From the NCBI RefSeq assembly GCF_050320075.1, contig NZ_CP190018.1: 64,000 bases of DNA. The stretch is one strand, 5' to 3'. This document shows positions 1-16,849 of this stretch, in pieces. The stretch's first letter is position 1. Each line of letters opens with the position of its first letter. The position numbers and the translations under genes were made by a program. This DNA is from Escherichia coli. GTDB taxonomy: Bacteria; Pseudomonadota; Gammaproteobacteria; Enterobacterales; Enterobacteriaceae. The notes under the pieces were generated by a model, which did not search any database, was not told where the DNA came from, and saw only the letters and a program-made list of their open reading frames with translations.

Positions 1-256
1 ACATTTTTATATCTGTCAGGTTACTTCATTATGAAAACTGATCATCATCGTTGTTTTTGTTGCAATAGTAGAATACGCGTATTTATTCCTCCATCTCTAT
101 TAATAACGGCAATAAACTGTTCACTTCACTGATATTTAAAATATGTATCCTTTTCAAGCTGTTCAGCGGCGTAAGAAAAAGTATTAATTATGAATTCGAT
201 GATTTAACCATATCTGTCTGATTGGTAATCATCCGTGATTAATGCTGGTCTATTGA

Positions 257-1177
257 TTACGCCAGAACCCTCTCTAGCTTATTCACCGCCGCCACATACT
301 TCGCCGGATTTTTATCTTTAAGCACCGCCAGATTGCGTTGCTTCCAGCGAATAGCCGGAAGATGCTGAATTTCAGGATAGCGATACCGCGACCAGTCAGG
401 GCTGTTTTGCTTAAAACTGAGCAAGAACTCGCGATCCAGATCCGTAAGATGTGACTTCAACGCCTGCGGCAGCAAAGTCGTTACTGACAGAAGCGATTCC
501 AGCGACGTTTCCTGTTGCGTCATCCCTGAAAATTCCTGCGCGTACAACGTGGCGATCCGCTCTGTATCCCAGTTTGGAGCCAGCAACTCGGCGATGGGGC
601 GGGGATGGCCTGCCAGATAACAAAGAAAACCGTCAAAGATCTCCCGCATCAGTCCCGGTTTCTCCAGCATATTCAGCACATCAAACAGATCGCGCGGGTG
701 CTGACGATCAAGCGCAGCGCAGATTTTACCGCCATAAAGATCCGCCAGCGAGACGACACTCATGGTGGTGAAGCCATACTCCATTTCCACACGTTCGCAC
801 ACAGGCATTTCTGCCGGAGGCAACAACAGCCCGCGCCAGACCGGGCTAACCTCGATCTTAATCTTTGCATCAGCGGTATTCACAATGATGCGCTTTTCAT
901 CCGCTTTATTTTCCTGCCGAATCGCGGTGATCCCCGGTCTGCCGTTCAGCGATGCAGTAATCCTCTTCAAAGCGTCGTTGATAGCCGCCAAATCAGTATC
1001 GCGATCCGCAAAGCTCTTGTACGCCAGATCAATATCCACCGACAGACGGGGAAAATCCTGCACAAACAAATTGATTGCGGTGCCGCCTTTCAACGCGAAA
1101 CAGGACTCCTTCGCCACATACGGCAGAGCGGCCATCAACAGTTTGACCTGCCGGGCATAGCTATCACGCAGATCCAT
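257..1177 (-). CDS. abiEii: AbiEii/AbiGii-family nucleotidyltransferase toxin (type IV TA / abortive infection)
   Basis: 306-aa ORF. N-terminal GGTAINLF...RLSVDIDLAYK nucleotidyltransferase signature typical of AbiEii. 14-nt overlap with the upstream AbiEi-like ORF. Confidence 0.8.
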   Translation of the reverse strand: MDLRDSYARQVKLLMAALPYVAKESCFALKGGTAINLFVQDFPRLSVDIDLAYKSFADRDTDLAAINDALKRITASLNGRPGITAIRQENKADEKRIIVNTADAKIKIEVSPVWRGLLLPPAEMPVCERVEMEYGFTTMSVVSLADLYGGKICAALDRQHPRDLFDVLNMLEKPGLMREIFDGFLCYLAGHPRPIAELLAPNWDTERIATLYAQEFSGMTQQETSLESLLSVTTLLPQALKSHLTDLDREFLLSFKQNSPDWSRYRYPEIQHLPAIRWKQRNLAVLKDKNPAKYVAAVNKLERVLA

Positions 1178-1967
1178 CTTCGACTCCTTCCGGTTTAAAT
1201 GCGCGTGGAACAGTAATTTGATAATCCGGCTCCAGCCAGCCGCCGGGTATGATTTGCCGCTTTCCCGTACCTGTTTCTATACCGCTTTGATCAATATACT
1301 GAAAATAAGGGTGTCCATTACGCCGGGCAAGGTAAAGCATCACCCGGTTGGTTTTAACCGAATGGCTGGCGCGAAGCAGTGCCTGCAATTTGCGTGGGCT
1401 GAGAAGATTCAACCCCTGAAACAGAGCATCGGCATGTTCGAACGAGATTAACGAAGGAACGCCGCAGGCGATCTCATACGCGGCCAGTTCCGGAACACTG
1501 CCTGCTAACTGGCGGTCGCCAATTTTCAGTTCCGTAGTAAATGGCGTTACATCAGCGGTAAGGCCTGACGTATACAGCGTGACAAACGTTGCGGATTGTT
1601 CAAAGGCAGAAAACCATCCCGGCAGTTTGACGTAAGCCGGAAGCGCGAGCCAGACCTGCGGCTTACCCTGTTCGGTATAGTGCGCATGACCCTGAAGCGC
1701 AAGGCTGGTTAGCCCCGCCACCCGAACAGGCTTTTCCCACTGCGATTGCAGGCAGTAAACCGCATCCACCCAATCCGGTTCACGACCCGTCCGGCAGTAT
1801 ACGCCGTGAGCGATCCGCCTGAGCCAGCCATTCTTCACATAGAGATAAGAGAGCTTACGATCTATGCCGTTGCGGGTAAGCCATGACTGGAGCAGCACCT
1901 GGCCGGGTAGCGTGTGCTGCATCAGCCAGTTTAGATAGTTTGGCAACTGTCGCCTCTGAATAGACAT
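1164..1967 (-). CDS. abiEi: AbiEi-family antitoxin / transcriptional regulator
   Basis: 267-aa ORF directly upstream of and overlapping abiEii. N-terminal winged-helix-like segment (LTRNGIDRKLSYLYVKNGWLRRIAHGVY) as in AbiEi_4 proteins. Confidence 0.75.
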   Translation of the reverse strand: MSIQRRQLPNYLNWLMQHTLPGQVLLQSWLTRNGIDRKLSYLYVKNGWLRRIAHGVYCRTGREPDWVDAVYCLQSQWEKPVRVAGLTSLALQGHAHYTEQGKPQVWLALPAYVKLPGWFSAFEQSATFVTLYTSGLTADVTPFTTELKIGDRQLAGSVPELAAYEIACGVPSLISFEHADALFQGLNLLSPRKLQALLRASHSVKTNRVMLYLARRNGHPYFQYIDQSGIETGTGKRQIIPGGWLEPDYQITVPRAFKPEGVEDGSA

Positions 1968-2261
1968 TAGTACAAATATTTAAACCAGTGTAGATTCAGG
2001 GATACGCCACAGCAAGAAATAGTTTACTTATTCCTCATTTTGTCGACTAAAAATCGACATTAAACAAAAAATTCAAACTTAATCACTTTCGGGAAAAATG
2101 TGACAAATATATGCTCGGACTGGTTGCGGGGAGCGTGTAACATGGATACAAATCAAAATTATTGCCAGCCTCACTGATGGATTACTGGTGTCAAGAGCCC
2201 CCCTTCGGGCATGAAACGGCTGGCTAATTCTGTACAGACTGTAATCTAAGGACGATAACGC

Positions 2262-5200
2262 ATGACATATCAGGCAATTTTCACTGGCTGGGATGATCTG
2301 ACGATTGAAGACCTTCTGGTCGCTTACCGGAAAGCAAAAGCCGATAGCTTCTTTGAGAATACATTTCCTGTTGCTATCAAATTTGCCGAGTATGAGCAGG
2401 AATTACTTGAAAACCTGCAAAAACTCTTAGATCTTTTGCAGAGCGAAGATGGATTCAGTAGCAATAAGAAGTTGATTGGCAAATTTCGATTGTTACCGAA
2501 AAAATTAACCACAAAGAAAAAACATGAATCCCAAAATGGACACGTCCACTTTTCTAATCCTAAACGAGCAGCCGACCATTTATTTAATAATTTTGATCTG
2601 ATACCAGAGTTTCGTATTATTGGTGACTTCCCGGTTGATAGTCACATTATCTCTGCACTATGGATTAACATGGTCGGGCATAAATTTGATGCCAGCTTAG
2701 ATAACTGTTGCTATGGCGCGCGGCTAAAGCGTATTCGTAATGATGAATTATTTAGCAATGAGCAGGATAATCCATTCCATATCAGTGCCGTGGGTTCTTT
2801 TAGCCCCTACTTCCAGCCCTACCAAAAATGGCGTGGTGATGGCTTAAAAGCTATACGTGACGAGTTGGAAAAAGATCGTGACATTATCGCCGCCTCACTG
2901 GATTTAAAAAGTTACTATCATTTTATTGATCCACTGGCTATAACCTCTGATGATCTCTATAACACACTAAACATAAAACTGACTGAGGATGAAAAAGCGT
3001 TTACTGCACAGTTAGCAGTATTCTTAAAGCACTGGTCTGACGGCGCAGCGGCATTTGGAAAGAAAATAGCGTACAAAACACCTGTTATTAATGGTGGTCT
3101 GGTCATTGGATTAACAGCCAGTCGGATCATTTCAAATATATTGCTACACCATTGGGATAAATTAGTCATTGAAAAACTATCACCAATTCACTACGGTCGT
3201 TATGTCGATGATATGTTCCTTGTAATACGCGATACAGGGACAATTACTAATAATCACGAATTTATGTTATTGCTGCAAGATAGGCTTGGCAATGATTGCG
3301 TTTATTTGAAAAACGAGCAAAAACAAATATGGCAAATACAGCAGGGCGAGCATTTCCAGGGTAAGACCACCATCCAGTTACAATCCGATAAGCAAAAACT
3401 TTTCGTGCTTCAAGGGAGGGCTGGAATAGACCTGCTCGACAGTATCGAAAAGGAGATCTACGAGCTTTCTAGTGAACACCGCTTGATGCCTTCACCGGAT
3501 CAACTGGAACACTCCACCGCAGCTAAAGTCCTTTCCGCTGCCGGTAGTGTAGGTGAAAATGCCGATACTCTGCGCCGTGCGGATGGATTAACCATTCGTC
3601 GTTTGGGCTGGTCACTGCAATTACGCTACGTTGAAACACTGGCACGAGATCTGCCTCCAAGTGAATGGAAAGAACAGCGGGAAGAGTTTTATCAGTTTGC
3701 CTACAACCATATTCTTAGGGCTGATAATCTATTTGCACATTTTAGTTATCTGCCAAGGCTGCTTGGCTTTGCTATCAGTATGAATGAATGGCAGCACGCG
3801 GAAAAAATTGTACTTAAAGCTTACGAATCCATCAACCTGTTGGCATCGGTGATTACTTCAGGTAAGGAAGTGAATATAAATGGTTGCAAAACTCGAGCAG
3901 TAAATGATCTTTGGCGCTGTATAAAAGGCACATTAAGCTGGCTATTTGTTGATGCAGCGACACGATATTACAGTCCTGACAGATTATTTCTTGATAAACG
4001 TTCAAAGAAAGAAGAGTGCCTTGCGGATACATTTTTTAATCATATTTCACAAAGTCTGACGAATCTAAAGGATTTACTGGATCTTCGCTTTGATTCAGCA
4101 GATTTTTATTTAAAAGCGCCATTGGTAGCTCGAGCTGATTTAGCAAAGGAACCTTATAAACAGATCGTAAAGAGTCAGTCGGCAGAAAAACTTGTTAATC
4201 AGCGTGATAGTAAAAAAGAAGTTAAAATACTGAAATTAATGAGCGACTCATCGCTTATTGATATTGACGTTATTAAGCTATTTTTGAAATCAACCAAGAA
4301 TACCCGACTGGAAAAAGTGGCTAAAGGAAATCGTAAGAACGAAAGTTACCTACCTTACATTTTCCCTACACGTCCTTTAACACCCGCTGAAATATCAGAA
4401 CTGGCCCCCGAATGTGTTGGATTACCCTCCACATCCGACAAAAAACCAGATGAGAGACCGTCCACCATTTGGGCAAAATATACTCAAGCATTACGCGGAG
4501 TATGGATCAAACCGACGTTGCTAGCATCGGAGCAGGACTCAGATGAAGCGACAAAAAAAGCTCGGCCTAAGAAATTCATTCATATTGGCACAGACAGGAA
4601 ACATAAAGTTGTCGTTGCGCTAACCAGCATTAAAACAGAGGAGGACGACTGGGCTAAAATGGCCTGCAATAAATCTAACTTGTCCCGTTCAAGGTACCAG
4701 CGGATTTCTGAACTGGTTAATGCAACATTGAAACTATCTCCTAAACCTGATTATGTTTTATTCCCTGAGCTTTCAATCCCGTTACGCTGGGTTAACAGTA
4801 TTGCTGATCGTTTGAGTTCGGCGGGTATCAGTCTAATTGCGGGAACAGAATACCGCCACTTAGACGATAATCAACTGAAGAGTGAGGCCGTACTTGTCCT
4901 TTCAGATAACAGACTCGGCTATCCAGCGAGTGTCAAAATATGGCAACCCAAGCTGGAACCCGCCGTAGGTGAAGATGAGGCATTATTTTCAATTTATGGT
5001 AAGTCTTGGGATTCGACACTTAATGTTAAACAACGTAAGCCGGTATATATTCATCACGGCGTCAATTTTGGCGTTATGATTTGCTCTGAACTCCAGAATA
5101 GTAAAGCGAGGATCCGTTTTCAGGGCGCACTCGATGCATTAATGGTATTGAGCTGGAATAAAGATCTAGATACGTTTGCATCGTTGATTGAATCAGCAGC

Positions 5201-5471
5201 GCTGGATATTCATGCCTATACTATTTTAGTGAATAACCGAAAATACGGCGATAGTCGCGTACGTTCCCCGGCAAAAGAACCCTTTATGCGTGATATTGCT
5301 CGTGTGAAGGGCGGTGATAATGACTTTGTGGTCGCTGCAACGCTGGATATCGACTCGTTAAGGGCATTTCAGAGCAGGGCAAAACGCTGGCCTAAAGGCG
5401 GCGATAAATTCAAACCGTTACCTGAAGGATTCCAGTTGGCAAAGAACCGCAAAAAGCTACCGCCAAAATAA
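2262..5471 (+). CDS. Reverse transcriptase fused to a C-terminal nitrilase (C-N hydrolase) domain; defence-associated RT architecture (UG/Abi, DRT type 1-like)
   Basis: 1069-aa ORF. RT motifs: LDLKSYY (A), GLVIGLTASRIISNILL (B), YVDD at nt 3201-3212 (C). C-terminal FPE (E836, nt 4767-4769) and MICSE (C941, nt 5082-5084) fit the nitrilase-superfamily Glu/Cys. Confidence 0.85.
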   Translation: MTYQAIFTGWDDLTIEDLLVAYRKAKADSFFENTFPVAIKFAEYEQELLENLQKLLDLLQSEDGFSSNKKLIGKFRLLPKKLTTKKKHESQNGHVHFSNPKRAADHLFNNFDLIPEFRIIGDFPVDSHIISALWINMVGHKFDASLDNCCYGARLKRIRNDELFSNEQDNPFHISAVGSFSPYFQPYQKWRGDGLKAIRDELEKDRDIIAASLDLKSYYHFIDPLAITSDDLYNTLNIKLTEDEKAFTAQLAVFLKHWSDGAAAFGKKIAYKTPVINGGLVIGLTASRIISNILLHHWDKLVIEKLSPIHYGRYVDDMFLVIRDTGTITNNHEFMLLLQDRLGNDCVYLKNEQKQIWQIQQGEHFQGKTTIQLQSDKQKLFVLQGRAGIDLLDSIEKEIYELSSEHRLMPSPDQLEHSTAAKVLSAAGSVGENADTLRRADGLTIRRLGWSLQLRYVETLARDLPPSEWKEQREEFYQFAYNHILRADNLFAHFSYLPRLLGFAISMNEWQHAEKIVLKAYESINLLASVITSGKEVNINGCKTRAVNDLWRCIKGTLSWLFVDAATRYYSPDRLFLDKRSKKEECLADTFFNHISQSLTNLKDLLDLRFDSADFYLKAPLVARADLAKEPYKQIVKSQSAEKLVNQRDSKKEVKILKLMSDSSLIDIDVIKLFLKSTKNTRLEKVAKGNRKNESYLPYIFPTRPLTPAEISELAPECVGLPSTSDKKPDERPSTIWAKYTQALRGVWIKPTLLASEQDSDEATKKARPKKFIHIGTDRKHKVVVALTSIKTEEDDWAKMACNKSNLSRSRYQRISELVNATLKLSPKPDYVLFPELSIPLRWVNSIADRLSSAGISLIAGTEYRHLDDNQLKSEAVLVLSDNRLGYPASVKIWQPKLEPAVGEDEALFSIYGKSWDSTLNVKQRKPVYIHHGVNFGVMICSELQNSKARIRFQGALDALMVLSWNKDLDTFASLIESAALDIHAYTILVNNRKYGDSRVRSPAKEPFMRDIARVKGGDNDFVVAATLDIDSLRAFQSRAKRWPKGGDKFKPLPEGFQLAKNRKKLPPK

Positions 5472-5681
5472 GAAACTGATTTTCGCTATTAATAATCAGG
5501 GTATTTTTGCGTGAGATGTTGGTAAACATGATGTAGCCCTTGCCACTCATGACCAATCGCAGTATCTTTCTCCCGCGCCTGCAAAATCAGGCGTCGGGAT
5601 TAGCCTCCTGAAGAAATCTTATCGGCGACACATGACGCGCCAGCGTCTTTTTTTGTGTTGTTCGCACGGTTACATCTCAAT

Positions 5682-5761
5682 GGTGGGCCGGGCGGGGGCG
5701 TCGCAAGACGCGCCAGTGTCCGATAAGGCTGGTAAGGCTAACCCTGCCCGGTTCCACCACC
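5682..5761 (+). ncRNA. Relic P4-type CI-like immunity RNA (second copy, different specificity)
   Basis: The closing stem ggtgggccgggcgggg / ccctgcccggttccaccacc mirrors the resident satellite CI RNA. An internal ccgataagg...aggctaa is complementary to flanking cttatcgg / gattagcct elements at 5598-5625 and 5767-5807. Confidence 0.4.
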
Positions 5762-5817
5762 CGCGAGATTAGCCTCTCCGGTGGTGGCTTGAACACCCAC
5801 TTATCGGAGGTTGCCCT

Positions 5818-6288
5818 ATGGCTACAATCCTCACCACTGACAGCGATTTACTCGATCTATTGACCGTCCCCTTCAATGCCACCACGGATTTCACTGTCCT
5901 TGCTGACTACTGCGCCCGCTTTGCCGAAACCCTGATTGAAACCGACGATCCAGCGCTACGACTGGCGCTCTGCGGGCGGCTTCACGCGGCTCTTGCGCTA
6001 CTGCAACCCACACTACACGACCCCATCCCACCGCATCTTACCGAAAGCCTGACCGTGGATACCCTTCCCGCCACACCAGAGCACTTTATTTCCGAACCTG
6101 ATTCCTTGTGCGAATACTGCCTCGCACTACTCCAGCTTCTGCTGGAACGTCCGGCGGAACCAAAAATGGAGCAAACCCTGACCGGGCTGCTGTGTGAGCT
6201 GGTCTGGTATTTCACGGAAGGACTCAAAGCCCCACGCTGGCTGCGTACCGCCGACGGCGTAAAATTTATCAGCGAGGTGGCCGCATGA
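5818..6288 (+). CDS. Hypothetical protein (first ORF downstream of the relic CI-like cassette)
   Basis: 156-aa ORF. GGAGG SD at 5806-5810, overlapped by the seqC-like element. The stop overlaps the next ATG (ATGA). No family recognised. Confidence 0.45.
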
Positions 6289-6425
6289 TGCAACAGGACT
6301 GGCATTCCGCCGACATTATTGCGGTGCTGAAAAAGCGGGGAACGCCTCTGGCGGCACAGAGAAAAACTCATTGCGGAAGCGCTGTAAATATCGCCAGAAA
6401 TCATCTGGCCTTCAAGGTACTTTGA
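6285..6425 (+). pseudogene. Ner/Nlp-like HTH regulator, disrupted
   Basis: The first ~25 codons ([24 protein letters not shown]) resemble Ner/Nlp. The rest is out of frame: LIAEAL then a stop, with [11 protein letters not shown] readable in another frame. Confidence 0.5.
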
Positions 6426-6434
6426 TAGCAAAGG

Positions 6435-6637
6435 CAAGCAGGCTGGTTCAGTCCAGTGTTTCTCTTCTTGCATTTTCAGAAATGGGAGGCTGGGAGTCTA
6501 TCGAAATGGTTCGTCGATATGCTCACCTCGCGCCTAATCACCTTACCGAACACGCACGGCAAATAGACTCAGTCCTGAACCCATCGGTCCCAAATTTGTC
6601 CCAGTCAAAAAATAAGGAAGGTACTAATGATGTGTAA
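6435..6637 (+). pseudogene. Tyrosine integrase C-terminal fragment (P22-type Int relic)
   Basis: Clear nucleotide and protein similarity to the 3' end of int at 55507-55702 ([31 protein letters not shown] vs [31 protein letters not shown]). The N-terminal ~320 codons are missing. Confidence 0.8.
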
Positions 6638-6651
6638 CTTATTGATTTTAA

Positions 6652-6667
6652 TGGTGCGATAAGAGGA
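6652..6667 (-). other. Degenerate thrW 3'-end att copy (distal junction of the P4-like satellite)
   Basis: tggtgcgataagagga vs tggtgccgataatagga of thrW (1 deletion, 1 mismatch). Preceded by the same ttgattt(t/a)aa context seen between int and thrW at 55.7 kb. Confidence 0.5.
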
Positions 6668-6785
6668 ATGAATATTGCAAGTTAACGCATTGATTTATAA
6701 TAGATTATTATATTCAAAAAATATAACTATACACATATCTATACACACTGCGCGCATCGCTTGTTTTTCGCACAATTAAAAATAA

Positions 6786-7086
6786 GAAAAAAGTTTTTTT
6801 TCGAAAGAACTGTTCACACTGTTCACCTTTCTGTTTTCTCCTTTTATTTCAGTTTGATAGGTGGTGAATAATGGGTGAATGGTGAACATTCGATTCTTCA
6901 CCTCCGGCATTCTGCCGGTGTGACTCATACCGGTGATTAATCCCCCGTACTGAAATCACACAGGGAGAAAAAAAGTTTTTTTTGATTTGATTGTTCACAC
7001 TGTTCACCTTTCATTTTTCTCTTTTAATTTCAGTGTGATAACGGGTGAATATACGGTGAAGGGTGAACAGTGGATTGTTCACCTTC
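6786..7086. repeat. crr-like cis replication region: two ~120-bp direct repeats ~60 bp apart carrying TGTTCACC/GGTGAA iterons
   Basis: 6786-6903 and 6968-7086 align almost base for base (aaaaaagtttttttt...tgttcacactgttcaccttt...ggtgaa...ttcacct). Same architecture as P4 crr, downstream of alpha. Confidence 0.8.
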
Positions 7087-7101
7087 GGGGAATTCAGGGA
7101 T

Positions 7102-7126
7102 AAAAAAAGACCGGCAGATGCCGGTC
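7102..7126 (-). terminator. Intrinsic terminator after alpha
   Basis: gaccggc-agat-gccggtc hairpin followed by a T7 run on the minus strand, 17 nt after the alpha stop. Confidence 0.7.
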
Positions 7127-7142
7127 AGATGAGTCATGATGG

Positions 7143-9476
7143 TCAGGTTGTTGCAGGGTCGTCACATTTTGGCAGCCAGTCGCCGTAGCTTTCCTCTTTC
7201 AGCGTCAGGTTGGTCTGTATCCCCTGTTTGGTATGGCGCTTCTCGTAATTCAGTCCGTATTCCTTCAGCATCACCGGCAGCCCCAGCCCGAACATTTTCA
7301 GACTGAGTACATTCCGGTAGCCGTTTGCCTCCATGTAGGCCAGATAGGCGTGATAGAGGTATTTACGGTAATTACGCGGGATGATACTGGCGTTCCCCAT
7401 ATACATGCCGCTGGTCTGCGGCAGGGTTTCCAGATAGCCGATAAAATCAAACGTCGGGTCGGCATCCCGTTTGATGTTCAGCGCCTCGTCTGAGTTCTGC
7501 TGGGACTGAAGCAGTGACCGGGCGAGCATCGGGTCGCTGAACTTCTGCATCAGGTGACGCACGATGACCGCCAGCTCGCGGGTGATTTTGTCCTTAAGCT
7601 GCGGGTCGCGCTCCTGCGGGGCTATCTGTTCCGGGAAGTGAATAATCACCCGCCGGCGTGACACGCCGCCGCTGCGGTCGGTGAAGCGCATCGGGTTATT
7701 GTTCACGGCCAGAATTACCGCCGGGATATGCGTGGAGTATGCATCCCGGTATTTCGGGTCAACGGACACCGCATCGCCGCCGGTGATGGCCTTGAGTCCG
7801 GCACCGTCGCCGCTCCATTTTTCCTGGTCCGGCAGGCGTATCAGTGAGAAGCCAGTTAACGCGGCACGTTCACGCGGGGATTCCAGCGTCTCGATGGTGG
7901 CCGACGTGGCGTTATCCTCCCCGGCCAGCAGGGTGGCTATTTCGGCCATGATACTTTTGCCGCTGCCGCCGGGACCGGTCACCTCCAGAAAGAGCTGCCA
8001 GTCGTAGCGGTTTGCCAGCACCATAAACAGTGCGGCCAGAATCACGTCGCGTTTTTCCGCACGGCCACCGGCGGCACGGTCAAGCCAGCGCCAGAACGCG
8101 GGGGCGTGGGTCTCCAGCGTTTCACCGTCCACCGGCGGGGTGAAATCCACATCGCACAGGGTGCGCATCCAGTGTGACGGACTGTGCGGGTGGAACGTGC
8201 CGTTCTGCGTGTCGAGCACGCCGTTACGAAAGCCAATCAGGCGGCGGGAGGGGGCTTCCTGCTGCGGAATAATCAGCTTCAGGGTGTCCACCACGGAGGC
8301 CACCTTCCCGGAGGAGAACGGCGCGCGCAGACGCTGAAACAGCCCGGCCACATCCCGGGCAAAGTCCTGTGGTGGCAGCACCTTCCAGACACCATTTTCA
8401 TAACGGGACAGAAGCTGGCCGTTGGCATCGACCGCGAGCGCCTCGCCGTAATGCTCATAGATACGCATGGCCTTTTCGCTGGTACTCATGGCGGAAAACT
8501 CCGCTTCGCTCATGGTGTCGAACGGGCTTTCAGCCGGTGGCCGGATGGCATCATAAATGGCCTTACGGGTGGCTTCCCCGCCGTACTGCGTGAAGGCATC
8601 ATTCCAGTCACCGAAGACCGGCGGCAGGGCAACAACGCCCTCACACGCATCTGCGGCTGCGGCGGCTTTTTTCTGGCCGTCACCGCTGAGGTCACGGTCT
8701 GCGGCAAGGACAATCTGACAGGCCGGATGCTTCTGCCGGGCAAGGCTGGCCAGAGAAAGGAGGTTCACGGAAGAAAGCGCCACCATCACCGTTTCACCGG
8801 TCAGGTGATGTACGGTAAGTGCGGTCGCGTATCCCTCCGCTATCCACAGACGTTTTCCGGCCTGATTCTGTCCTTCAAGGGTGTGACAGGTGCCCCTGAC
8901 CTGTCCGCCTTTCAGGGTGCGCTTACGGCCGTCAGCACTGATTAACTGAAGGTTAACCAGTTCGCCGCTGTCGTCATACAGTGGCACCACAAGGTCACCG
9001 GCACGCCAGCTCACGCCACCGGCTCTGTGTGTGCCGGTCAGCATCCGGCATTCCCGGCCGGGAAAGCCCTTGCGGGTCAGGTAGGCGTTACCGGTTCCGG
9101 GACGGGTTTTCGCCATCAGGGTTTGTGCCAGTGCGGCGGCGTTCTTCCGGGCAGCGTCTGTTTCAGCACCGGCGGCAGCCGTCACTGCCGGGTCAGCCGG
9201 GGGCAGGCTGCCGGTCACGGCAGCCACCTTTGCTGCCGCGTCGGACGGGGAAACACCAAACACCTTTTCAACCAGTTTCAGGCCGTCACCGGCACCACAC
9301 TGATTGCAGTACCAGGTGCCGCGCCCCTCCCTGTCATCAAAACGGAAGCGGTCACTCCCGCCACAGACCGGACAGGGCTGATGACGGTTTTTCAGCACCT
9401 GAATCCCCAGCGCCGGGAGAATACGCGGCCAGTGGCCGAGCGCATGGCTGACGGTGGCGGTTACGTTCATTTTCAT
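7143..9476 (-). CDS. alpha: P4 alpha-type primase/helicase/origin-binding protein
   Basis: 777 aa, the same length as P4 gpalpha. N-terminal zinc-binding CPVCGG...CNQCG, TOPRIM-like core and a GPGGSGKS Walker A motif. Confidence 0.9.
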   Translation of the reverse strand: MKMNVTATVSHALGHWPRILPALGIQVLKNRHQPCPVCGGSDRFRFDDREGRGTWYCNQCGAGDGLKLVEKVFGVSPSDAAAKVAAVTGSLPPADPAVTAAAGAETDAARKNAAALAQTLMAKTRPGTGNAYLTRKGFPGRECRMLTGTHRAGGVSWRAGDLVVPLYDDSGELVNLQLISADGRKRTLKGGQVRGTCHTLEGQNQAGKRLWIAEGYATALTVHHLTGETVMVALSSVNLLSLASLARQKHPACQIVLAADRDLSGDGQKKAAAAADACEGVVALPPVFGDWNDAFTQYGGEATRKAIYDAIRPPAESPFDTMSEAEFSAMSTSEKAMRIYEHYGEALAVDANGQLLSRYENGVWKVLPPQDFARDVAGLFQRLRAPFSSGKVASVVDTLKLIIPQQEAPSRRLIGFRNGVLDTQNGTFHPHSPSHWMRTLCDVDFTPPVDGETLETHAPAFWRWLDRAAGGRAEKRDVILAALFMVLANRYDWQLFLEVTGPGGSGKSIMAEIATLLAGEDNATSATIETLESPRERAALTGFSLIRLPDQEKWSGDGAGLKAITGGDAVSVDPKYRDAYSTHIPAVILAVNNNPMRFTDRSGGVSRRRVIIHFPEQIAPQERDPQLKDKITRELAVIVRHLMQKFSDPMLARSLLQSQQNSDEALNIKRDADPTFDFIGYLETLPQTSGMYMGNASIIPRNYRKYLYHAYLAYMEANGYRNVLSLKMFGLGLPVMLKEYGLNYEKRHTKQGIQTNLTLKEESYGDWLPKCDDPATT

Positions 9477-9490
9477 GGTGTTGTTCTCCT

Positions 9491-9811
9491 TCAGTGCAGT
9501 ACCGGCGCTTTTATGTGACGGGCACAGAGTTCATCCATCACAACCAGCCCGAGAAAGGACAGCGACGGCGCGGCCTTCAGGGGGCCGGATTCCATTAAAT
9601 CTTCCAGCAGGGCACAGGCTATCTGACGCCCTTTTTCCTCACCGTGCTGGCGCAGATAAAAGCCTTCCAGCTCAGCGGCGATGGCCGCCTCCAGTGATTC
9701 AAGGGTGAGATGCGGGTAGCGGTGCTGACGTTCGCACACGGTCAGCCAGGCACAGGCGACAGCGCGACGGTAAAGGGCTGCGCGTAAGACGGGCGGTAAG
9801 GGTGTTTTCAT
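9491..9811 (-). CDS. P4 orf106-like protein
   Basis: 106-aa ORF immediately upstream of alpha, with the position and length of P4 orf106. Confidence 0.6.
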
Positions 9812-9946
9812 TTGTTTTCCTCCCTGTGACAGATGACTGCATTCCGTGCCGGTTGCATTAACTGATAAGGCATATCTGCGTCTCCTGAAGACGTGCGTAT
9901 CCCTGCGCGAATACGCACATTTAATTTTTCGGGTGTCGTTTTTTAA

Positions 9947-10402
9947 TTACAGATAATTGCGGTAACTGTTATCCGGGGTGATTTCCGGGTCAGGCTCCGT
10001 GCGGGGAATTTCCCGCCATTCCCGCGCCACCGGTGCCGCCCGGCTGGCCGGAACAGTGTCCTGCGGGTAAATATCCAGATATTTCTCCCGCCATTTCTGT
10101 AATTCCGGGTCTCCGGCCATTTCTTTCAGTACCGCATGCCGGTTTACGGGGCTGCGTTTAAACAGGTCAGGACGGTCACAGGTAAATTCCCGCAGAAAAC
10201 GCCCCAGCGGGATGTCTGTGGTGCGCCCGTCAGCGAGGATACGCACAAGGATACTGAATTTACGGCGGTACGGGTTCCAGACAATGTCCGGGCAGCGGTA
10301 CGGCATTTCCCACGGAATACCGTCTTCCAGAATGCCGACCACGGCCACATCGGGAAAACCGGCAGAACGGTAAATCTCACCGGGCTGGGGAAAATCAAAC
10401 AT
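9947..10402 (-). CDS. P4 orf151-like protein
   Basis: 151-aa ORF between epsilon and orf106, with the position and length of P4 orf151. Confidence 0.6.
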   Translation of the reverse strand: MFDFPQPGEIYRSAGFPDVAVVGILEDGIPWEMPYRCPDIVWNPYRRKFSILVRILADGRTTDIPLGRFLREFTCDRPDLFKRSPVNRHAVLKEMAGDPELQKWREKYLDIYPQDTVPASRAAPVAREWREIPRTEPDPEITPDNSYRNYL

Positions 10403-10682
10403 GCGTCCTGTCTCCCCGGTCTTTCTGCTGGGCGAGAAAATCGCGGCACAGGCCTTTGGCTTTCAGTTCATTCAGCACAAAATCAATATCTTCATTCAGG
10501 TAGCTGAAAATATGCGGAATGTAGAGCTGATGCAGGCCGGAGAGTTCACGGTGAATCAAATCACCCCCAACAAACCGGGATACGGCGCTGGCGCGGTTGA
10601 GCTTATGGTAAGCCTCAATGCTGAGGTGTTCACGGGCGTCATGACGCGCTGAGACGGTCTGAGGGGCTTTTTTATTACGCAC
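10395..10682 (-). CDS. epsilon: P4 epsilon-like antirepressor (derepresses helper prophage)
   Basis: 95 codons from a GTG at 10680-10682, with GGAGG upstream. Length and position match P4 epsilon. The ORF-track 177-aa ORF is an upstream over-extension. Confidence 0.6.
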
Positions 10683-10872
10683 GGGACACCTCCACCACCG
10701 GCAGACGGGCAGCAAGGGAGAGCACATAGTCACGGACAAGGGAACGGCGGGCGCTGCGTTCATCACCGGCGACGGTGCGAAGCATACAGATACGGGGATG
10801 ACGATCTGCGCGACGGACAGCCGCAAACACAAAGACAAATTCAGGGTGTGAGGTGGTAAGGGTTGTAGCCAT
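10675..10872 (-). CDS. Small ORF (65 aa) downstream of CI RNA; eta-position gene
   Basis: ATG at 10870-10872. Its GGAGG SD (10881-10885) lies inside the seqC-like element, as for the first translated ORF after cI in P4. Confidence 0.5.
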
Positions 10873-10883
10873 GATGGCAGCCT

Positions 10884-10924
10884 CCTTGAAGTAACAGTTA
10901 CAGCTACCACTGGAGTTCCTACGC
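10884..10924 (-). promoter_or_regulatory. seqC-like target of CI RNA
   Basis: Minus-sense gcgtaggaac...ttacttcaagg is complementary to the CI seqB ccttgaagg...ttcctac. Near-duplicate of 11106-11131. Confidence 0.65.
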
Positions 10925-11010
10925 TCATGGGTGGTAGCCCGGACGGGGGTAGGAATACCGGCCTTCAAGGAAACCGGCCAGCCCGAAGGCTGCCCCGCCC
11001 GGACCACCAT
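10925..11010 (-). ncRNA. cI: P4-type CI immunity RNA (contains seqB at 10949-10970)
   Basis: A long closing stem (atggtggtccgggcgggg / ccccgtccgggctaccac) encloses ccttgaaggccggtattcctac, which is complementary to both seqA-like and seqC-like elements. Position between PLE and epsilon. Confidence 0.65.
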
Positions 11011-11105
11011 TATCTGACAGAGGCTACGGTTTAAAAACCACAGCCAGAAAAACAGGTGTGCCGAAGCAACGACGTAAAAAAAGACGCATGGCGCGTCATA
11101 TGTCG

Positions 11106-11131
11106 CCTTGAAGTAACTCGGGTTCCTACGC
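11106..11131 (-). promoter_or_regulatory. seqA-like target of CI RNA (overlaps the RBS of a 22-codon kil-position ORF starting at 11101-11103)
   Basis: ccttgaagtaactcgggttcctacgc on the plus strand is a near-duplicate of the seqC-like element and complementary to seqB. Confidence 0.6.
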
Positions 11132-11225
11132 CCGGCTGCCGATTTTGCGGCAGCGGAAAAACTATATCCGCAAATGCCGGAAAAAGGCAAGCCAGAAAAA
11201 GGGACTTTTTGCAGAACAGGCATCA

Positions 11226-11492
11226 TCATGCGTCATACCCCCGTTGGCGTCCGGCAATGCGGCCGGCCATCCATGCGGTGACTTCAGAGTGCAGCCAGGC
11301 CACATTTTTACCGCCAAGACTCACCTGCGGCGGAAATTCCCCCTTACGGATGAGTTCATAGATGGTCGAGCGTGACAGGCCGCACAGGTGCATCACTTCC
11401 GGCAGACGTAAAAAACGCTCCTGCGTGATGTCCGGCAGCGGCATCAGTGGCGTCACAGGGGCGGGAGACGGGGAAGAAAAAACAGCTTGCAT
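11226..11492 (-). CDS. vis: Vis/AlpA-family excisionase-regulator (P4 orf88)
   Basis: 88 aa. The MerR/AlpA-type HTH ([27 protein letters not shown]) and the position between PLL and PLE match P4. Confidence 0.8.
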
Positions 11493-11594
11493 CGGGCTAC
11501 CTCGTTAATGTCCATACAGCACCGGATAAGTCCGTCCGGCTTCTGGTAGCGCTTTATTTTGTGAATATTTTCAGCAGACGCAACAGGGGGAATT

Positions 11595-11612
11595 TGTTCC
11601 GGCAACCTTACA
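11595..11612. promoter_or_regulatory. TGT-N12-ACA activator dyad of PLL-type late promoter
   Basis: tgttccggcaaccttaca. Centred ~110 nt upstream of the vis start, consistent with a -55 Ogr/Delta-type site. Confidence 0.6.
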
Positions 11613-11770
11613 ATGGCTGTGTGTTTTTTATCCATCTGGACTGGAAGGGTCTCAAAGGGTTCTGAAGGACCTGGAATTTTTTATAGTGAAATACAAATTG
11701 TTTTTTCTTATTTATTTCAGTGAATTAATAAAAATAAACAGTGATAAACAGCATAAAAAGCCCATCAACG

Positions 11771-11884
11771 GGTGAACAGTGGTGAACAGACGGTGAACAG
11801 TCATTACTGCGATTGTTCACCCTTTAACTTACTGTATTACTTATCTTTTTTCTTATGGTGAACAGAGGTGAACAGTAAAATATA
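11771..11884. repeat. P4-type ori: six GGTGAACA/TGTTCACC type I iterons
   Basis: Copies at 11771, 11781, 11793, 11814 (inverted), 11867 and 11877. Same 8-mer as in crr. An AT-rich stretch lies upstream (11690-11760). Confidence 0.8.
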
Positions 11885-11953
11885 AAAAAACAAACAGTAA
11901 GCCGGTTTTTCCTGCGACCTTTTCCTGGCTTGCCGGTCTGAGGATGAGTCTCC

Positions 11954-11971
11954 TGTGTCAGGGCTGGCACA
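11954..11971. promoter_or_regulatory. TGT-N12-ACA activator dyad of Psid-type late promoter
   Basis: tgtgtcagggctggcaca, ~80 nt upstream of the sid ATG (12044). Consistent with a -55 Delta/Ogr site. Confidence 0.65.
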
Positions 11972-12043
11972 TCTGCAATGCGTCGTGTTGCTGTCCGGTG
12001 TACGTCACAATTTTCTTAACCTGAAGTGACGAGGAGCCGGAAA

Positions 12044-12778
12044 ATGTCTGACCACACTATCCCTGAATATCTGCAACCCGCACTGGCACAACTGGAAAAG
12101 GCCAGAGCCGCCCATCTTGAGAACGCCCGCCTGATGGATGAGACCGTCACGGCCATTGAACGGGCAGAGCAGGAAAAAAATGCGCTGGCGCAGGCCGACG
12201 GAAACGACGCTGACGACTGGCGCACGGCCTTTCGTGCAGCCGGTGGTGTCCTGAGCGACGAGCTGAAACAGCGCCACATTGAGCGCGTGGCACGCCGGGA
12301 GCTGGTACAGGAATATGACAATCTGGCCGTGGTGCTGAATTTCGAACGTGAACGCCTGAAAGGGGCGTGTGACAGCACGGCCACCGCCTACCGGAAGGCA
12401 CATCATCACCTTCTGAGTCTGTATGCAGAGCATGAGCTGGAACACGCCCTGAATGAAACCTGTGAGGCGCTTGTCCGGGCAATGCATCTGAGCATTCTGG
12501 TACAGGAAAATCCGCTCGCCAACACCACCGGCCATCAGGGCTACGTCGCACCCGATAAGGCTGTCATGCAGCAGGTGAAATCATCGCTGGAACAGAAAAT
12601 TAAACAGATGCAAATCAGCCTCAGCGGCGAGCCGGTTCTCCGGCTGACCGGACTGTCAGCGGCAACACTTCCGCACATGGATTATGAGGTGGCAGGCACA
12701 CCGGCACAGCGCAAGGTGTGGCAGGACAAAATAGACCAGCAGGGAGCAGAGCTTAAGGCCAGAGGACTGCTGTCATGA
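12044..12778 (+). CDS. sid: Sid capsid size-determination (external scaffold) protein
   Basis: 244 aa from the ATG at 12044 (GAGGAG SD), the same length as P4 Sid. Helical and charged. First gene of the sid-delta-psu operon. Confidence 0.8.
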   Translation: MSDHTIPEYLQPALAQLEKARAAHLENARLMDETVTAIERAEQEKNALAQADGNDADDWRTAFRAAGGVLSDELKQRHIERVARRELVQEYDNLAVVLNFERERLKGACDSTATAYRKAHHHLLSLYAEHELEHALNETCEALVRAMHLSILVQENPLANTTGHQGYVAPDKAVMQQVKSSLEQKIKQMQISLSGEPVLRLTGLSAATLPHMDYEVAGTPAQRKVWQDKIDQQGAELKARGLLS

Positions 12779-13275
12779 TTTACTGCCCGTCGTGTGGACA
12801 TGTTGCTCACACCCGTCGCGCACATTTCATGGACGATGGCACCAAGATAATGATTGCACAGTGCCGGAATATTTATTGCTCTGCGACATTTGAAGCGAGT
12901 GAAAGCTTTTTCTCTGACAGTAAAGATTCAGGAATGGAATACATTTCAGGCAAACAGAGATACCGCGATTCACTGACGTCAGCCTCCGGCAGTATGAAAC
13001 GCCCGAAAAGAATGCTTGTTACCGGATATTGTTGTCGGAGATGTAAAGGCCTTGCACTGTCAAGAACATCGCGGCGTCTGTCTCAGGAAGTCACCGAGCG
13101 TTTTTATGTGTGCACGGATCGGGGCTGTGGTCTGGTGTTTAAAACGCTTCAGACCATCAACCGTTTCATTGTCCGCCCGGTCACGCCGGACGAACTGGCA
13201 GAACGCCTGCATGAAAAACAGGAACTGCCGCCAGTACGGTTAAAAACACAATCATATTCGCTGCGTCTGGAATGA
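12775..13275 (+). CDS. delta: Delta (duplicated Ogr-type zinc-finger late activator)
   Basis: 166 aa. Two CxxC...CxxxxC Ogr-like halves (CPSCGH...CRNIYC and CRRCKG...CTDRGC). ATGA-coupled to sid. Confidence 0.85.
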   Translation: MIYCPSCGHVAHTRRAHFMDDGTKIMIAQCRNIYCSATFEASESFFSDSKDSGMEYISGKQRYRDSLTSASGSMKRPKRMLVTGYCCRRCKGLALSRTSRRLSQEVTERFYVCTDRGCGLVFKTLQTINRFIVRPVTPDELAERLHEKQELPPVRLKTQSYSLRLE

Positions 13276-13348
13276 GGGCTGCCGGTTAACACCGGCCGTC
13301 GCCGCACACCGTATTTTTATTCTTCAGCATGATGAGAAAGAGATAACG

Positions 13349-13921
13349 ATGGAAAGCACAGCCTTACAGCAGGCCTTTGACACCTGTCAGAATAACAAAG
13401 CAGCATGGCTGCAACGCAAAAATGAGCTGGCAGCGGCCGAACAGGAATATCTGCGGCTTCTGTCAGGAGAAGGTAGAAACGTCAGTCGCCTGGACGAATT
13501 ACGCAATATTATCGAAGTCAGAAAATGGCAGGTGAATCAGGCTGCCGGTCGTTATATTCGTTCGCATGAAGCCGTTCAGCACATCAGCATCCGCGACCGG
13601 CTGAATGATTTTATGCAGCAGCACGGCACAGCACTGGCGGCCGCACTGGCACCGGAGCTGATGGGCTACAGTGAGCTGACGGCCATTGCCCGAAACTGTG
13701 CCATACAGCGTGCCACAGATGCCCTGCGTGAAGCCCTTCTGTCCTGGCTTGCGAAGGGGGAAAAAATTAATTATTCCGCACAGGATAGCGACATTTTAAC
13801 GACTATCGGATTCAGGCCTGACGCGGCTTCTGTGGATGACAGCCGTGAAAAATTCACCCCTGCGCAGAACATGATTTTTTCGCGTAAAAGTGCGCAACTG
13901 GCATCACGTCAGTCTGTGTAA
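13349..13921 (+). CDS. psu: Psu (polarity suppression / capsid decoration, Rho antagonist)
   Basis: 190 aa, the same length and position as P4 Psu. Confidence 0.8.
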   Translation: MESTALQQAFDTCQNNKAAWLQRKNELAAAEQEYLRLLSGEGRNVSRLDELRNIIEVRKWQVNQAAGRYIRSHEAVQHISIRDRLNDFMQQHGTALAAALAPELMGYSELTAIARNCAIQRATDALREALLSWLAKGEKINYSAQDSDILTTIGFRPDAASVDDSREKFTPAQNMIFSRKSAQLASRQSV

Positions 13922-14085
13922 AATTCCCCGAAAATCCGCCTGTTTTTACTGAAAAAAGCCATGCATCGATAAGGTGCATGGCTTTGCATGCGTTTTCCTG
14001 CCTCATTTTCTGCAAACCGCACCATTCCCGGCGCGGTCTGAGCGTGTCAGTGCAACTGCATTAAAACCGCCCCGCAAAGCGGGCG

Positions 14086-14104
14086 GGCGAGGCGGGGAAA
14101 GCAC
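14086..14104. other. P2/P4-type cos cohesive-end sequence
   Basis: ggcgaggcggggaaagcac matches the 19-nt P2/P4 cohesive end as I recall it. Located after psu as in P4. Confidence 0.7.
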
Positions 14105-14122
14105 TGCGCGCAACAATGATGA

Positions 14123-15517
14123 TTATGATTTCATTTTATCTGCAATATCTTCTAAGGAATCAAAGAATGCTTTGACAAAGTTGTCTTTATTAACAGTAGT
14201 AAAGTTTTGATTGTAAAATCCTACACATGCAGAAAAAATTGCTCTGCAAGTTAGCTCATTATATTTAGATGAATATAATGGTTCGACTCCACGATACACG
14301 GACCAAGAACCATGAGCTATATCAGACCTAGTCTTATACATTTCCTGAGCCACTCTAGCCCATTTTTTTTCATCTTGATAATAAATAGAAACTAATGAAG
14401 AAACACGACTTACGAAGTTCTTTGTTGTAGATGAATCCTTTTTTTCGCTACTTAGACTAACCAGCCGTTCAAGAGCCGTTGTTAATTTTACTATACGAGA
14501 ACTTTCATCCTTATCCTGTTGTGCGCTACTAAATAAATAGATAGCATCAATTAGCCTGTCTGCAATTACAGAGTTTTCATGAGGTTCTATCGCCAACTCT
14601 ATTAACCGAGAAAGAACTAACCCTAAGTCAGATTTGTAATCATCTTCAAACTTATTCCAAAACTCACCGCTATTGGCTATAGTCCCTTTAGTTGAGTAAT
14701 GATAGTTAAACATTTCGTTTGGTTTCTTGGAAAGATAAAAGCCGTCATAATTTGGGTAAGGATCTGTTGATATACTTAAAAAGTATGGGGAGATATTATA
14801 GTGCACACCAAATAGCTGTAGTATCCCAACCACAAAACATGCAATATTTTTAGCGATTCTCTGCCTACTTAACTTAGAGCGTTTGCTAACAGGGATTTTT
14901 AGGTAGTGTTTATAATGAAATTTATGAGAAGAACAAAATTTCTTAGCTAAATCAAGTTGTTGCTCAGTAAAATCATCACTAATAGTTAAGTGCATTTTTT
15001 CTGCCGATATAATATCAACTCGGCCAATAGACATTATATCTCGTTCCAACCCGTGAGCTAAAATAGGATAATAAAAATCCTCTTCAGACATTTCTCTCCT
15101 TGTTAGTTTTAATGTTTTATTTAGGAGGATAGTACATCCACTCCTGTCGCAACTGCCGTTCTCAACCCAAATATGCATAAACAATATTTTCTTAAGATTA
15201 CTTAAAAATTCATCGGTAGTAACTAGCATTTCTAAGCGATTTGATTTTATAAATCTAGCCGAAATAGCATATAACTTCTCATAAGAGGCATATGATAGAT
15301 GAATTTGAGTTCTAGAAAGATCTGTTCTTCCTTTTATTAGTTCATATGGTGCATCTATGGTCATTCCCAATGAACCAAAATTACCATTATATTCTTTTTT
15401 GTAAAATTCCATAAAATTAGATGAGGATGTTAACTCTTTATTTATTCTAACAGCCTCATCAAGAATAAATTTAAAATCTTTAACGTCTTCCAAACTGGCA
15501 CTCATCATTTTCACCAT
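14123..15517 (-). CDS. Orphan cargo protein with C-terminal HEPN-like Rx4H motif; candidate anti-phage effector
   Basis: 464-aa ORF, markedly AT-rich. Fills the cos-int slot. R397-S-D-I-A-H402 (nt 14312-14329) sits in a helical C-terminal region. Start ambiguous (15517, 15508 or 15505) and overlaps the int 3' end. Confidence 0.6.
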   Translation of the reverse strand: MVKMMSASLEDVKDFKFILDEAVRINKELTSSSNFMEFYKKEYNGNFGSLGMTIDAPYELIKGRTDLSRTQIHLSYASYEKLYAISARFIKSNRLEMLVTTDEFLSNLKKILFMHIWVENGSCDRSGCTILLNKTLKLTRREMSEEDFYYPILAHGLERDIMSIGRVDIISAEKMHLTISDDFTEQQLDLAKKFCSSHKFHYKHYLKIPVSKRSKLSRQRIAKNIACFVVGILQLFGVHYNISPYFLSISTDPYPNYDGFYLSKKPNEMFNYHYSTKGTIANSGEFWNKFEDDYKSDLGLVLSRLIELAIEPHENSVIADRLIDAIYLFSSAQQDKDESSRIVKLTTALERLVSLSSEKKDSSTTKNFVSRVSSLVSIYYQDEKKWARVAQEMYKTRSDIAHGSWSVYRGVEPLYSSKYNELTCRAIFSACVGFYNQNFTTVNKDNFVKAFFDSLEDIADKMKS

Positions 15518-16685: not shown

Positions 16686-16849
16686 GTGTATAGAATTCCA
16701 AAATCGAACAGGAACATATACATAATCCTATACACATTTAGTACTGGATTCTACTGGAAGGTTATGGACTAACACGGACAACGATAACAAAAAATCTTTT
16801 ATAAAACAGTATGCTTATGGACAAATACGGACGTTTGAAGAAGTTGGGA

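Follow-up and report, generated by a model that had tools for sequence, protein, structure and literature searches.

An intact UG5-large reverse transcriptase–nitrilase carried as cargo of a decayed P4-like satellite island in Escherichia coli

The stretch of Escherichia coli DNA analysed here (64,000 nucleotides of contig NZ_CP190018.1, assembly GCF_050320075.1; hereafter the window) carries, beside a divergent AbiE operon and P4-type immunity RNAs, a gene whose product fuses a reverse transcriptase (RT) to a nitrilase-superfamily domain. RefSeq annotates the protein only as an 'RNA-directed DNA polymerase' and Pfam assigns it no domain; the value of the present analysis lies in a correct annotation, as the gene really encodes an intact defence RT of the UG5-large type. 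We consider it likely, with a probability of roughly 0.78, that the gene is a self-contained, single-polypeptide abortive-infection (Abi) system, borne as P4-like cargo beside an independent AbiE module.

Gene architecture and family assignment

The gene, its domains as placed by an AlphaFold2 (AF2) model and its catalytic residues are as follows.

2262–5471 (+), UG5-large RT–nitrilase gene, 1,069 residues from an ATG start; RefSeq WP_001521910.1
2262–3410 (+), RT domain with a family-specific N-terminal extension (residues 1–383), from the AF2 model
2901–2903 (+), aspartate D214 of RT motif A, within LDLKSYY, invariant in 128/128 relatives
3201–3212 (+), RT motif C, YVDD (Y314–D317), from the translation; Y314, D316 and D317 invariant
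3516–4496 (+), all-alpha helical-repeat domain (residues ~419–745), from the AF2 model
4575–5372 (+), C–N hydrolase (nitrilase-superfamily) effector domain (residues ~772–1037), an alpha/beta sandwich at 772–1037 in the AF2 model, with an extended tail after it
4767–4769 (+), nitrilase E836, in FPE, of the catalytic tetrad
4950–4952 (+), nitrilase K897, of the catalytic tetrad
4971–4973 (+), nitrilase E904, of the catalytic tetrad
5082–5084 (+), nitrilase C941, in MICSE, of the catalytic tetrad

The open reading frame (ORF) is uninterrupted, and the motifs that an earlier note on this DNA had read in it (LDLKSYY, GLVIGLTASRIISNILL at residues 279–295, YVDD, FPE and MICSE) are all in place. Across an alignment of 128 relatives of 29–82% identity, which underlies the conservation figures given throughout, RT residues D214, Y314, D316, D317 and K377 and the full nitrilase tetrad of E836, K897, E904 and C941 are invariant (128/128), bearing out the conservation of catalytic residues in orthologues on which that note's reading depended. 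Its Glu–Lys–Cys triad was right as to E836 and C941, and had overlooked both the catalytic lysine, K897, and a second glutamate, E904. The latter lies seven residues past K897, the spacing at which canonical nitrilases carry their second glutamate. Judged from these residues, the RT and nitrilase active sites are both intact. The gene occurs at full length and at least 99% identity in 259 of 5,426 complete E. coli genomes (~5%) and, with its reading frame intact, its catalytic residues invariant and full-length relatives widespread, it is not a gene in decay.

The AF2 model, built from 70 of the relatives (mean predicted local distance difference test score 87.3, predicted template modelling score 0.90), lays out three domains in the order RT, alpha-helical repeat and C–N hydrolase, a predicted layout with which Foldseek agrees and which matches the description of the defence-associated reverse transcriptase (DRT) DRT1 in PMC13275509. 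Its N-terminal part consists of helices at residues 15–60, a long beta-hairpin (74–122), a further helix (125–144) and the palm (184–383), so that residues 1–200 make up, in the model, the RT's fingers and N-terminal extension; the palm is followed by a long helix (385–407). Residues 21–60, 121–160 and 181–340 are well conserved, and 381–520 are conserved too; residues 521–700 and 720–780 are variable and gap-rich, a stretch interrupted by a conserved FPTRP island in which R704 is invariant (128/128); and residues 781–1060 form the best-conserved block of the alignment.

Among the PADLOC profile hidden Markov models (HMMs), RT_UG5-nitrilase (PDLC03780) matches residues 1–1068 at 1,034.5 bits. 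The other UG5 models come next at 189 and 133 bits (the latter UG5_small), the Drt1a (UG1) models match fragments only, at 88.6 bits (residues 151–409) and 34 bits, and the remaining UG, retron and Cas RT models stay below 45 bits, with retron, group II and Cas-RT models at no more than 32 bits; NCBIfam models for retrons, Drt2, Drt3 and Drt4 reach 18–32 bits against cut-offs of 200–450. On this HMM ranking, as distinct from a phylogenetic tree, the protein is a UG5-large member of the class 3 UG/Abi RTs ('DRT11' or 'DRT5L' type) with a fused nitrilase. Class 3, UG5-large included, was defined by Mestre et al. 2022 and has an extension of unknown function between RT and hydrolase (PMC9226505). 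The hallmarks of UG5-large are found here: a C–N hydrolase with Glu-Lys-Cys(-Glu) residues in the same polypeptide as the RT, a size of ~1,000 residues or more with an extension between the two (1,069 residues, with the all-alpha region at ~419–745), and a situation in a defence island or mobile element.

The UG5-nitrilase score thus upholds the proposal that the gene encodes a defence-type RT–nitrilase fusion of the UG/Abi group, and separates it, as also proposed, from retron and group II intron RTs, whose models score far lower. The more specific suggestion of a DRT type 1 (UG1) architecture fails: Drt1a reaches 89 bits, on fragments, against 1,034 bits for UG5-nitrilase, and UG1 proteins are 1,200–1,300 residues long against 1,069 here. 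We also rejected a group II intron RT or maturase, with no group II intron match in Rfam over positions 1–16000 and no Pfam match to the protein at E ≤ 0.01, RVT_1, GIIM and Intron_maturas2 included; at the level of structure, similarity to group II intron RTs is that of the generic RT fold only. The same Pfam search did not confirm the 'DUF4136' connector named for DRT11. That residues 1–200 and 400–800 match nothing recognisable is therefore correct for Pfam and no further, since the PADLOC UG5 model spans 1–1068 and DRT11 aligns through both regions.

A search of 1.8 billion representatives returned 858 relatives at E < 1e-30, many aligning from residue ~10 to ~1067. Full-length relatives of at least 69% identity are present in Citrobacter, Yersinia, Salmonella, Vibrio, Alteromonas, Marinobacter, Idiomarina and other genera, identity being ~70% for the Vibrio, Alteromonas, Marinobacter and some other copies; tblastn against a phage collection gave no match to the RT–nitrilase.

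Characterised relatives and a proposed mechanism

The system is of a known kind: it has been named, PADLOC detects it, defence has been validated for it twice and its biochemistry once, and it has been reported on E. coli P4-like satellites. DRT11 (WP_040120558.1; PMC13436386; bioRxiv 10.64898/2025.12.16.694600), whose gene we recovered on S. meliloti RMO17 pSymA by tblastn of plasmids, is 30% identical over residues 13–1067 (E 2e-145). It has the same order of RT, helical linker and CN-hydrolase, with YVDD and the catalytic Cys, Lys and Glu in alignment, an [A/S]-S-E-W-R-x-M-P motif and an FKPVPDGF tail; it too is without a transmembrane (TM) partner and without a non-coding RNA (ncRNA), and lies in a variable defence region with an AbiEii-like neighbour gene. 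The two proteins differ at 70% of residues and in length (1,005 against 1,069 residues, mostly in the helical domain), and DRT11 comes from an alphaproteobacterial megaplasmid rather than an enterobacterial P4-like island. It is a validated TM-less, ncRNA-less UG5-large defence system that is active as a single gene; changing DD to AA at its equivalent of YVDD abolishes defence, no flanking transcript accompanies it, and deletion of 179 bp upstream did not affect defence (PMC13436386).

The 'RT-nitrilase + 1TM' system E101 (Rousset 2022, PMC9122126), which is 'DRT5L' of Neville et al. (PMC13275509), is likewise a UG5-large RT–nitrilase on an E. coli P4-like satellite, with 26% identity in the RT (13–410), 29% in the nitrilase (773–1057), an SSAFRFLP motif and a K-x-x-P-x-G-F tail. 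It departs from the present protein in its length (~950 residues), its AT-rich gene, a helical domain that BLAST does not align with ours, its need for a ~230-residue partner with one TM helix (there is no TM gene here) and its activity only at room temperature; E101 lies in the psu–int hotspot, the gene studied here beside the P4 immunity region. The supplementary tables of Rousset list neither this RT–nitrilase nor AbiE.

DRT1 (UG1) of Klebsiella pneumoniae (Gao 2020; cryo-EM structure PDB 9YFD, PMC13275509) is a further class 3 RT with an alpha-helical repeat and a nitrilase, and has both the K-x-x-P-x-G-F tail and a Ser-containing segment right after the palm. A profile of the 128 relatives matches 9YFD at E 1.5e-31 through both the RT and nitrilase regions, and phmmer aligns only the last ~120 residues (E 1e-6); Foldseek against the PDB library did not return 9YFD, so that the relation to DRT1 rests on sequence profiles. 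The two likely work by the same logic of a protein-primed adduct, a nitrilase oligomer and abortive infection. Nevertheless, DRT1 belongs to another UG group (Drt1a HMM 89 bits against 1,034 for UG5) and is longer (1,229 against 1,069 residues), the register of its priming site against ours is ambiguous, and filament formation and the Dda trigger are described for DRT1. The protein-primed polymerases of UG/Abi classes 1 and 2 (AbiK/AbiA/Abi-P2, DRT4, DRT7 and DRT9) are unlike our protein in being without a nitrilase effector, and their HMMs score low. AbiK primes on a tyrosine, and DRT9 requires an ncRNA.

For class 3 itself, the earlier note's view that template, product and nitrilase role were all open questions has been largely overtaken. 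DRT1, DRT5S and DRT5L polymerise deoxynucleoside triphosphates with no template and while RNase A is present, forming protein-primed adducts of single-stranded DNA (ssDNA) from which the DNA is freed only by proteinase K (PMC13275509), and DRT11 has been validated for defence (PMC13436386).

Two short motifs bear on how far this biochemistry may extend to the present protein.

3468–3491 (+), SSEHRLMP motif (residues 403–410); S404, at 3471–3473, is the candidate priming serine
5409–5432 (+), C-terminal tail motif FKPLPEGF (residues 1050–1057), from the translation; probable nitrilase lid

S404 is invariant (128/128) and E405, R407 and P410 are more than 90% conserved, within a motif [S/A/T]-S-E-x-R-x-x-P that sits at the end of the post-palm helix and before the least confident loop of the AF2 model (429–438). 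Its counterparts read ASEWRAMP in DRT11, SSAFRFLP in E101 DRT5L and SSDFLLLP in DRT5S, and the DRT1 priming site, T401-S402-S403-I-P, occupies the same post-palm segment, a few residues past the aligned '...NEI' helix end. MAFFT, run with DRT1, DRT5L and DRT5S sequences that were machine-read from the paper's supplement with some errors, puts the Ser motifs of DRT1 and the UG5 proteins in one segment with an ambiguous register; sub-profile 365–520, run against the PDB to align the DRT1 priming loop residue by residue, gave only spurious myeloperoxidase matches. We predict from this that S404 is the best candidate for the protein-priming residue. That it primes in all UG5 RT–nitrilases as the equivalent of DRT1 Ser402 is a bolder proposition, to which we give clearly less than even odds; if true, it would contradict the statement in print that other class 3 DRTs do not conserve the serine on which DRT1 primes, and the entire RT–nitrilase radiation would have inherited a serine primer together with a C-terminal K-x-x-P-x-G-F lid from its ancestor.

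In the tail, K1051 is present in 127/127 sequences and P1052, P1054 and G1056 in more than 93%. FKPLPEGF aligns with T-K1219-T-Q-P-A1223-G-F of DRT1 and IKHNPPGF of E101, besides FKPVPDGF of DRT11. In DRT1 the tail is a domain-swapped lid above the nitrilase pocket, and defence is lost with either K1219A or A1223F (PMC13275509); by analogy, FKPLPEGF probably serves the nitrilase active site as a lid. Profile alignment to DRT1 gives a different register in the tail, making residue equivalence with DRT1 provisional. The invariance of Ser404 and the K-x-x-P-x-G-F tail motif common to this protein and DRT1 are, at the level of sequence, new here, and make the transfer of mechanism more than a guess.

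By analogy with DRT1, DRT5L and DRT11, we postulate that the RT would need no RNA template and would prime on a residue of its own, with S404 as the best candidate, adding a short, semirandom ssDNA adduct. The adduct would drive oligomerisation through the nitrilase domains, rendering the effector competent yet dormant, probably through the C-terminal K-x-x-P-x-G-F lid. A cue from the replication stage of a phage would then free the nitrilase, which would act on an essential amide or nitrile-type substrate and abort the infection. Two predictions are ready for mutagenesis, one at S404 and one at K1051 with G1056, and the gene, native to E. coli, conveniently represents the branch of UG5-large that has neither a TM partner nor an ncRNA.

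Several points weigh against this reading of the gene as a self-contained abortive-infection system. Anti-phage activity has been shown only for DRT11, E101 and DRT1 (PMC13436386; PMC9122126; PMC13275509), and the literature searched held no tests of the gammaproteobacterial subclade of ~1,067 residues, which is at least 70% different from the tested proteins. Identity is 26–30% to the tested UG5-large proteins and ~14–18% to DRT1, and the activity, phage range and trigger of the subclade are extrapolated from these relatives. Priming at S404 is a prediction only, as the register of T-S-S-I-P in DRT1 against SSEHRLMP is ambiguous, with S404 at a predicted helix end, and according to the authors of the DRT1 work the remaining class 3 DRTs do not conserve its priming serine (PMC13275509). 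A simple scan of the leader found no sigma-70 promoter. Lastly, E101 required its 1-TM partner and room temperature (PMC9122126; PMC9226505), and the TM gene is absent here, so that the present protein could differ from E101 in its behaviour; to this last point DRT11, active without a TM partner, is a counterpoint (PMC13436386).

The partner question raises the possibility that E. coli carries the gene as a passenger that is silent or does not function, its partner missing or selection on it lost. Beyond the requirements of E101, the carrier element is decayed (with integrase and helix-turn-helix (HTH) fragments), no promoter was called, and the window has no hydrophobic ORF downstream of the RT (maximum 19-residue Kyte–Doolittle mean 1.14). 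We nonetheless regard a passenger as improbable, given a full-length ORF kept at 99% identity or more in those 259 genomes, the invariance of all its catalytic residues and the full-length relatives of at least 69% identity, which span many gammaproteobacterial genera and in most cases have no TM gene beside them. The 1-TM partner (clusters 85/1858) is optional, with 31 of 299 UG5-large members having one (PMC9226505), and DRT11 works without it (PMC13436386). An all-against-all BLAST of neighbours at the 29 full-length orthologous loci gave no family in more than six, and a conserved partner gene was rejected. A homologous ORF of ~150 residues lies 13–36 nucleotides 3′ of the RT at just three of these loci, whose RTs are among the more divergent (47–66% identity); it has one predicted TM helix in L017 and L034 and no Pfam match, and is presumably the optional UG5-large TM partner.

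L017, 9276–9716, ~150-residue downstream ORF
L034, 9220–9672, ~150-residue downstream ORF
L039, 9233–9688, ~150-residue downstream ORF

The leader and the AbiE module

Upstream of the RT–nitrilase gene lie three features.

257–1967 (−), AbiEii (257–1177) and AbiEi (1164–1967), a type IV toxin–antitoxin/Abi module, from Pfam and PADLOC
1968–2170, AbiE-side intergenic DNA, cargo-independent, ~90% identical to an abiEi–hsdR region
2171–2261 (+), RT-specific 5′ region of 91 nucleotides, presumed 5′ untranslated region, with a Shine–Dalgarno sequence (TAAGGA) upstream of the ATG; from alignments

The earlier note's divergent AbiE operon and 294-bp gap are genuine: Pfam (AbiEi_3 8e-36, AbiEii 3e-35) and PADLOC (266 and 385 bits) both recognise the module, and the gap measures 294 bp with the longest abiEi ORF (1164–1967) and 315 bp with the RefSeq start. 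Its suggestion that this leader encodes a cognate ncRNA or template, on the other hand, finds no support. There is a sizeable non-coding gap upstream of the RT, class 2 UG/Abi RTs and retrons have adjacent ncRNAs (PMC9226505; PMC13275509), and a short block directly before the Shine–Dalgarno sequence is conserved in three enterobacterial loci. Against these stands the origin of the DNA itself: window 1920–2170 is ~90% identical to the abiEi–hsdR spacer of an RT-less strain, in which hsdR takes the place of the RT, and the homology ends near 2170. Thus the abiE side accounts for 203 of the 294 leader bases, regardless of the cargo.

The leader also folds no better than dinucleotide shuffles, either over its 294 nucleotides (z +0.95) or in its RT-specific 91 nucleotides at 2171–2261 (z +0.68). 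Rfam at E ≤ 1 over 1–16000 gave nothing in 1968–5471, its matches being the P4 isrK/C4 RNAs and two at chance level, and a simple scan of 1900–2350 found neither a sigma-70 promoter nor a terminator. Compared with 43 orthologous loci by nhmmer and blastn, the leader has similarity in three close enterobacterial loci only (L002, L003 and L029). Moreover, at 11 of the 29 full-length loci (L004, L005, L008, L009, L010, L017, L021, L025, L027, L037 and L039) a same-strand upstream gene ends within 20 nucleotides of the RT start or overlaps it, and at four of these (L004, L017, L037 and L039) a gene follows 13–36 nucleotides downstream as well, leaving no space for an adjacent RNA gene; some loci have 20 nucleotides or fewer on either side. 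DRT11, too, has no flanking transcript and tolerates its 179-bp upstream deletion (PMC13436386). A structured ncRNA that would supply the RT with a template or scaffold, on the pattern of class 2 (DRT2, DRT9 and DRT3) or of retrons, is therefore very improbable, and we rejected membership in the ncRNA-dependent class (DRT2, DRT3, DRT9 and retrons), as no conserved structured ncRNA adjoins the RT gene. The leader is mostly regulatory DNA of the AbiE module and not a template RNA, which removes a misleading lead.

Regulation from the AbiE side is indicated by a palindrome, TGTCGACTAAAAATCGACAT, at 2041–2060 and a related 20-bp copy, TGTCGCCTCTGAATAGACAT, at 1948–1967, which lies 93 bp away and overlaps the abiEi start codon; both elements are conserved in a Serratia locus (L002), in L003 and in other loci. 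AbiEi is known to regulate its own expression, and on that analogy the two elements are likely, if putative, AbiEi operator sites. In E. coli strains without the RT (NZ_AP022064.1, L047, 6903–13819) the order int′–abiEii–abiEi, divergent from hsdR–hsdM–hsdS, occupies the same chromosomal site as window 257–2170 (on the ecp–ykgJ–yagU side), with ~200 bp of intergenic DNA conserved at ~90%. From this comparison the slot beside abiEi looks like a cargo-exchange site behind a fixed control region, of interest in that alternative defence cargo is accepted behind conserved regulatory DNA. As a weaker possibility, the 1968–2170 block may hold a promoter that places the gene in the slot, RT–nitrilase or hsdR, under AbiEi control.

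Such a promoter, reading into whatever cargo follows, would suit a single functional unit of RT–nitrilase and AbiE, in which AbiEi governs expression of the RT or each module relies on the other. The two genes are divergent about a common 294-bp control region with its two operator-like repeats, the same junction recurs in the Serratia locus, an abiEi remnant is kept in L003, and DRT11 also adjoins an AbiEii-like gene. Yet hsdRMS can replace the RT next to AbiE at this very chromosomal site, 27 of the 29 full-length orthologous loci are without AbiE (besides the window, only the Serratia locus has both, apart from the remnant in L003), and DRT11 and DRT1 function as single genes. We thus judge one unit, and functional dependence between RT and AbiE generally, unlikely, though the two may be coupled in transcription; AbiE is a neighbouring, separable module and not part of the RT system.

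Orthologues elsewhere adjoin type I restriction–modification and ATPase genes. In many marine gammaproteobacteria (loci L005, L010, L021, L025, L027 and L037, with the RT at ~6001), a ~70%-identical orthologue directly follows or overlaps genes of a type I restriction–modification operon (HsdM, HsdS) or an SMC/AAA ATPase gene; at these loci the RT is wedged into other defence operons, with which it is probably co-transcribed.

The P4-like carrier and its surroundings

The RT–nitrilase gene rides as cargo on an E. coli satellite island that is P4-like and decayed. Two sets of immunity RNAs were found.

5562–5764 (+), isrK/C4-type immunity RNAs (c4-a1b1, isrK and C4), Rfam RF01394 at 68.8 bits and RF01695 at 71.1 bits
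10927–11167 (−), second isrK/C4 set, in an intact P4-like neighbour without an RT, from Rfam

Both sets comprise c4-a1b1, isrK and C4, at 44–86 bits, and the set behind the RT belongs to the carrier rather than to the RT system. One is that of the decayed element with AbiE and the RT, and is followed by an ash-family ORF, an ORF of 156 residues and HTH and integrase fragments; the other is that of an adjacent complete satellite in the opposite orientation. The Serratia locus preserves the layout int–AbiE–RT–isrK/C4–orf153–HTH_35. The complete satellite, at ~7143–16700 (21244–30786 in L001), holds the alpha primase-helicase (7143–9476, −), Icd-like, ash, HTH, sid-like, ogr/Delta and psu genes and, in the psu–int hotspot, a 461-residue HEPN-domain gene, probably another defence cargo, before int. 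The guanine-plus-cytosine content is ~40–43% in the RT region against 56–61% in the adjacent alpha region. It is documented that P4-like satellites act as reservoirs for defence cargo, UG5-large included (PMC9122126; PMC9226505).

Just past the 3′ end of the alpha primase gene lies a direct repeat of 123 nucleotides (6785–6907 and 6966–7088; 80% identity, 181-nucleotide spacing), which may be a P4 crr/ori-like replication region or a satellite end. Two PLSDB 'plasmids' of E. coli (CP088862.1, L046, and NZ_CP146678.1, of 35 kb and 64 kb) contain a 99.9%-identical RT, which in CP088862.1 stands beside Mu-like tail and baseplate genes and pinE; both records are probably chromosomal or prophage DNA mislabelled as plasmids. 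The only tRNA in the window is tRNA-Thr (CGT) at 55717–55792 (−), and integrase fragments matching window 6479–6667 adjoin tRNA-Thr in other E. coli genomes, suggesting this tRNA as the attachment site that one of the stacked elements originally used.

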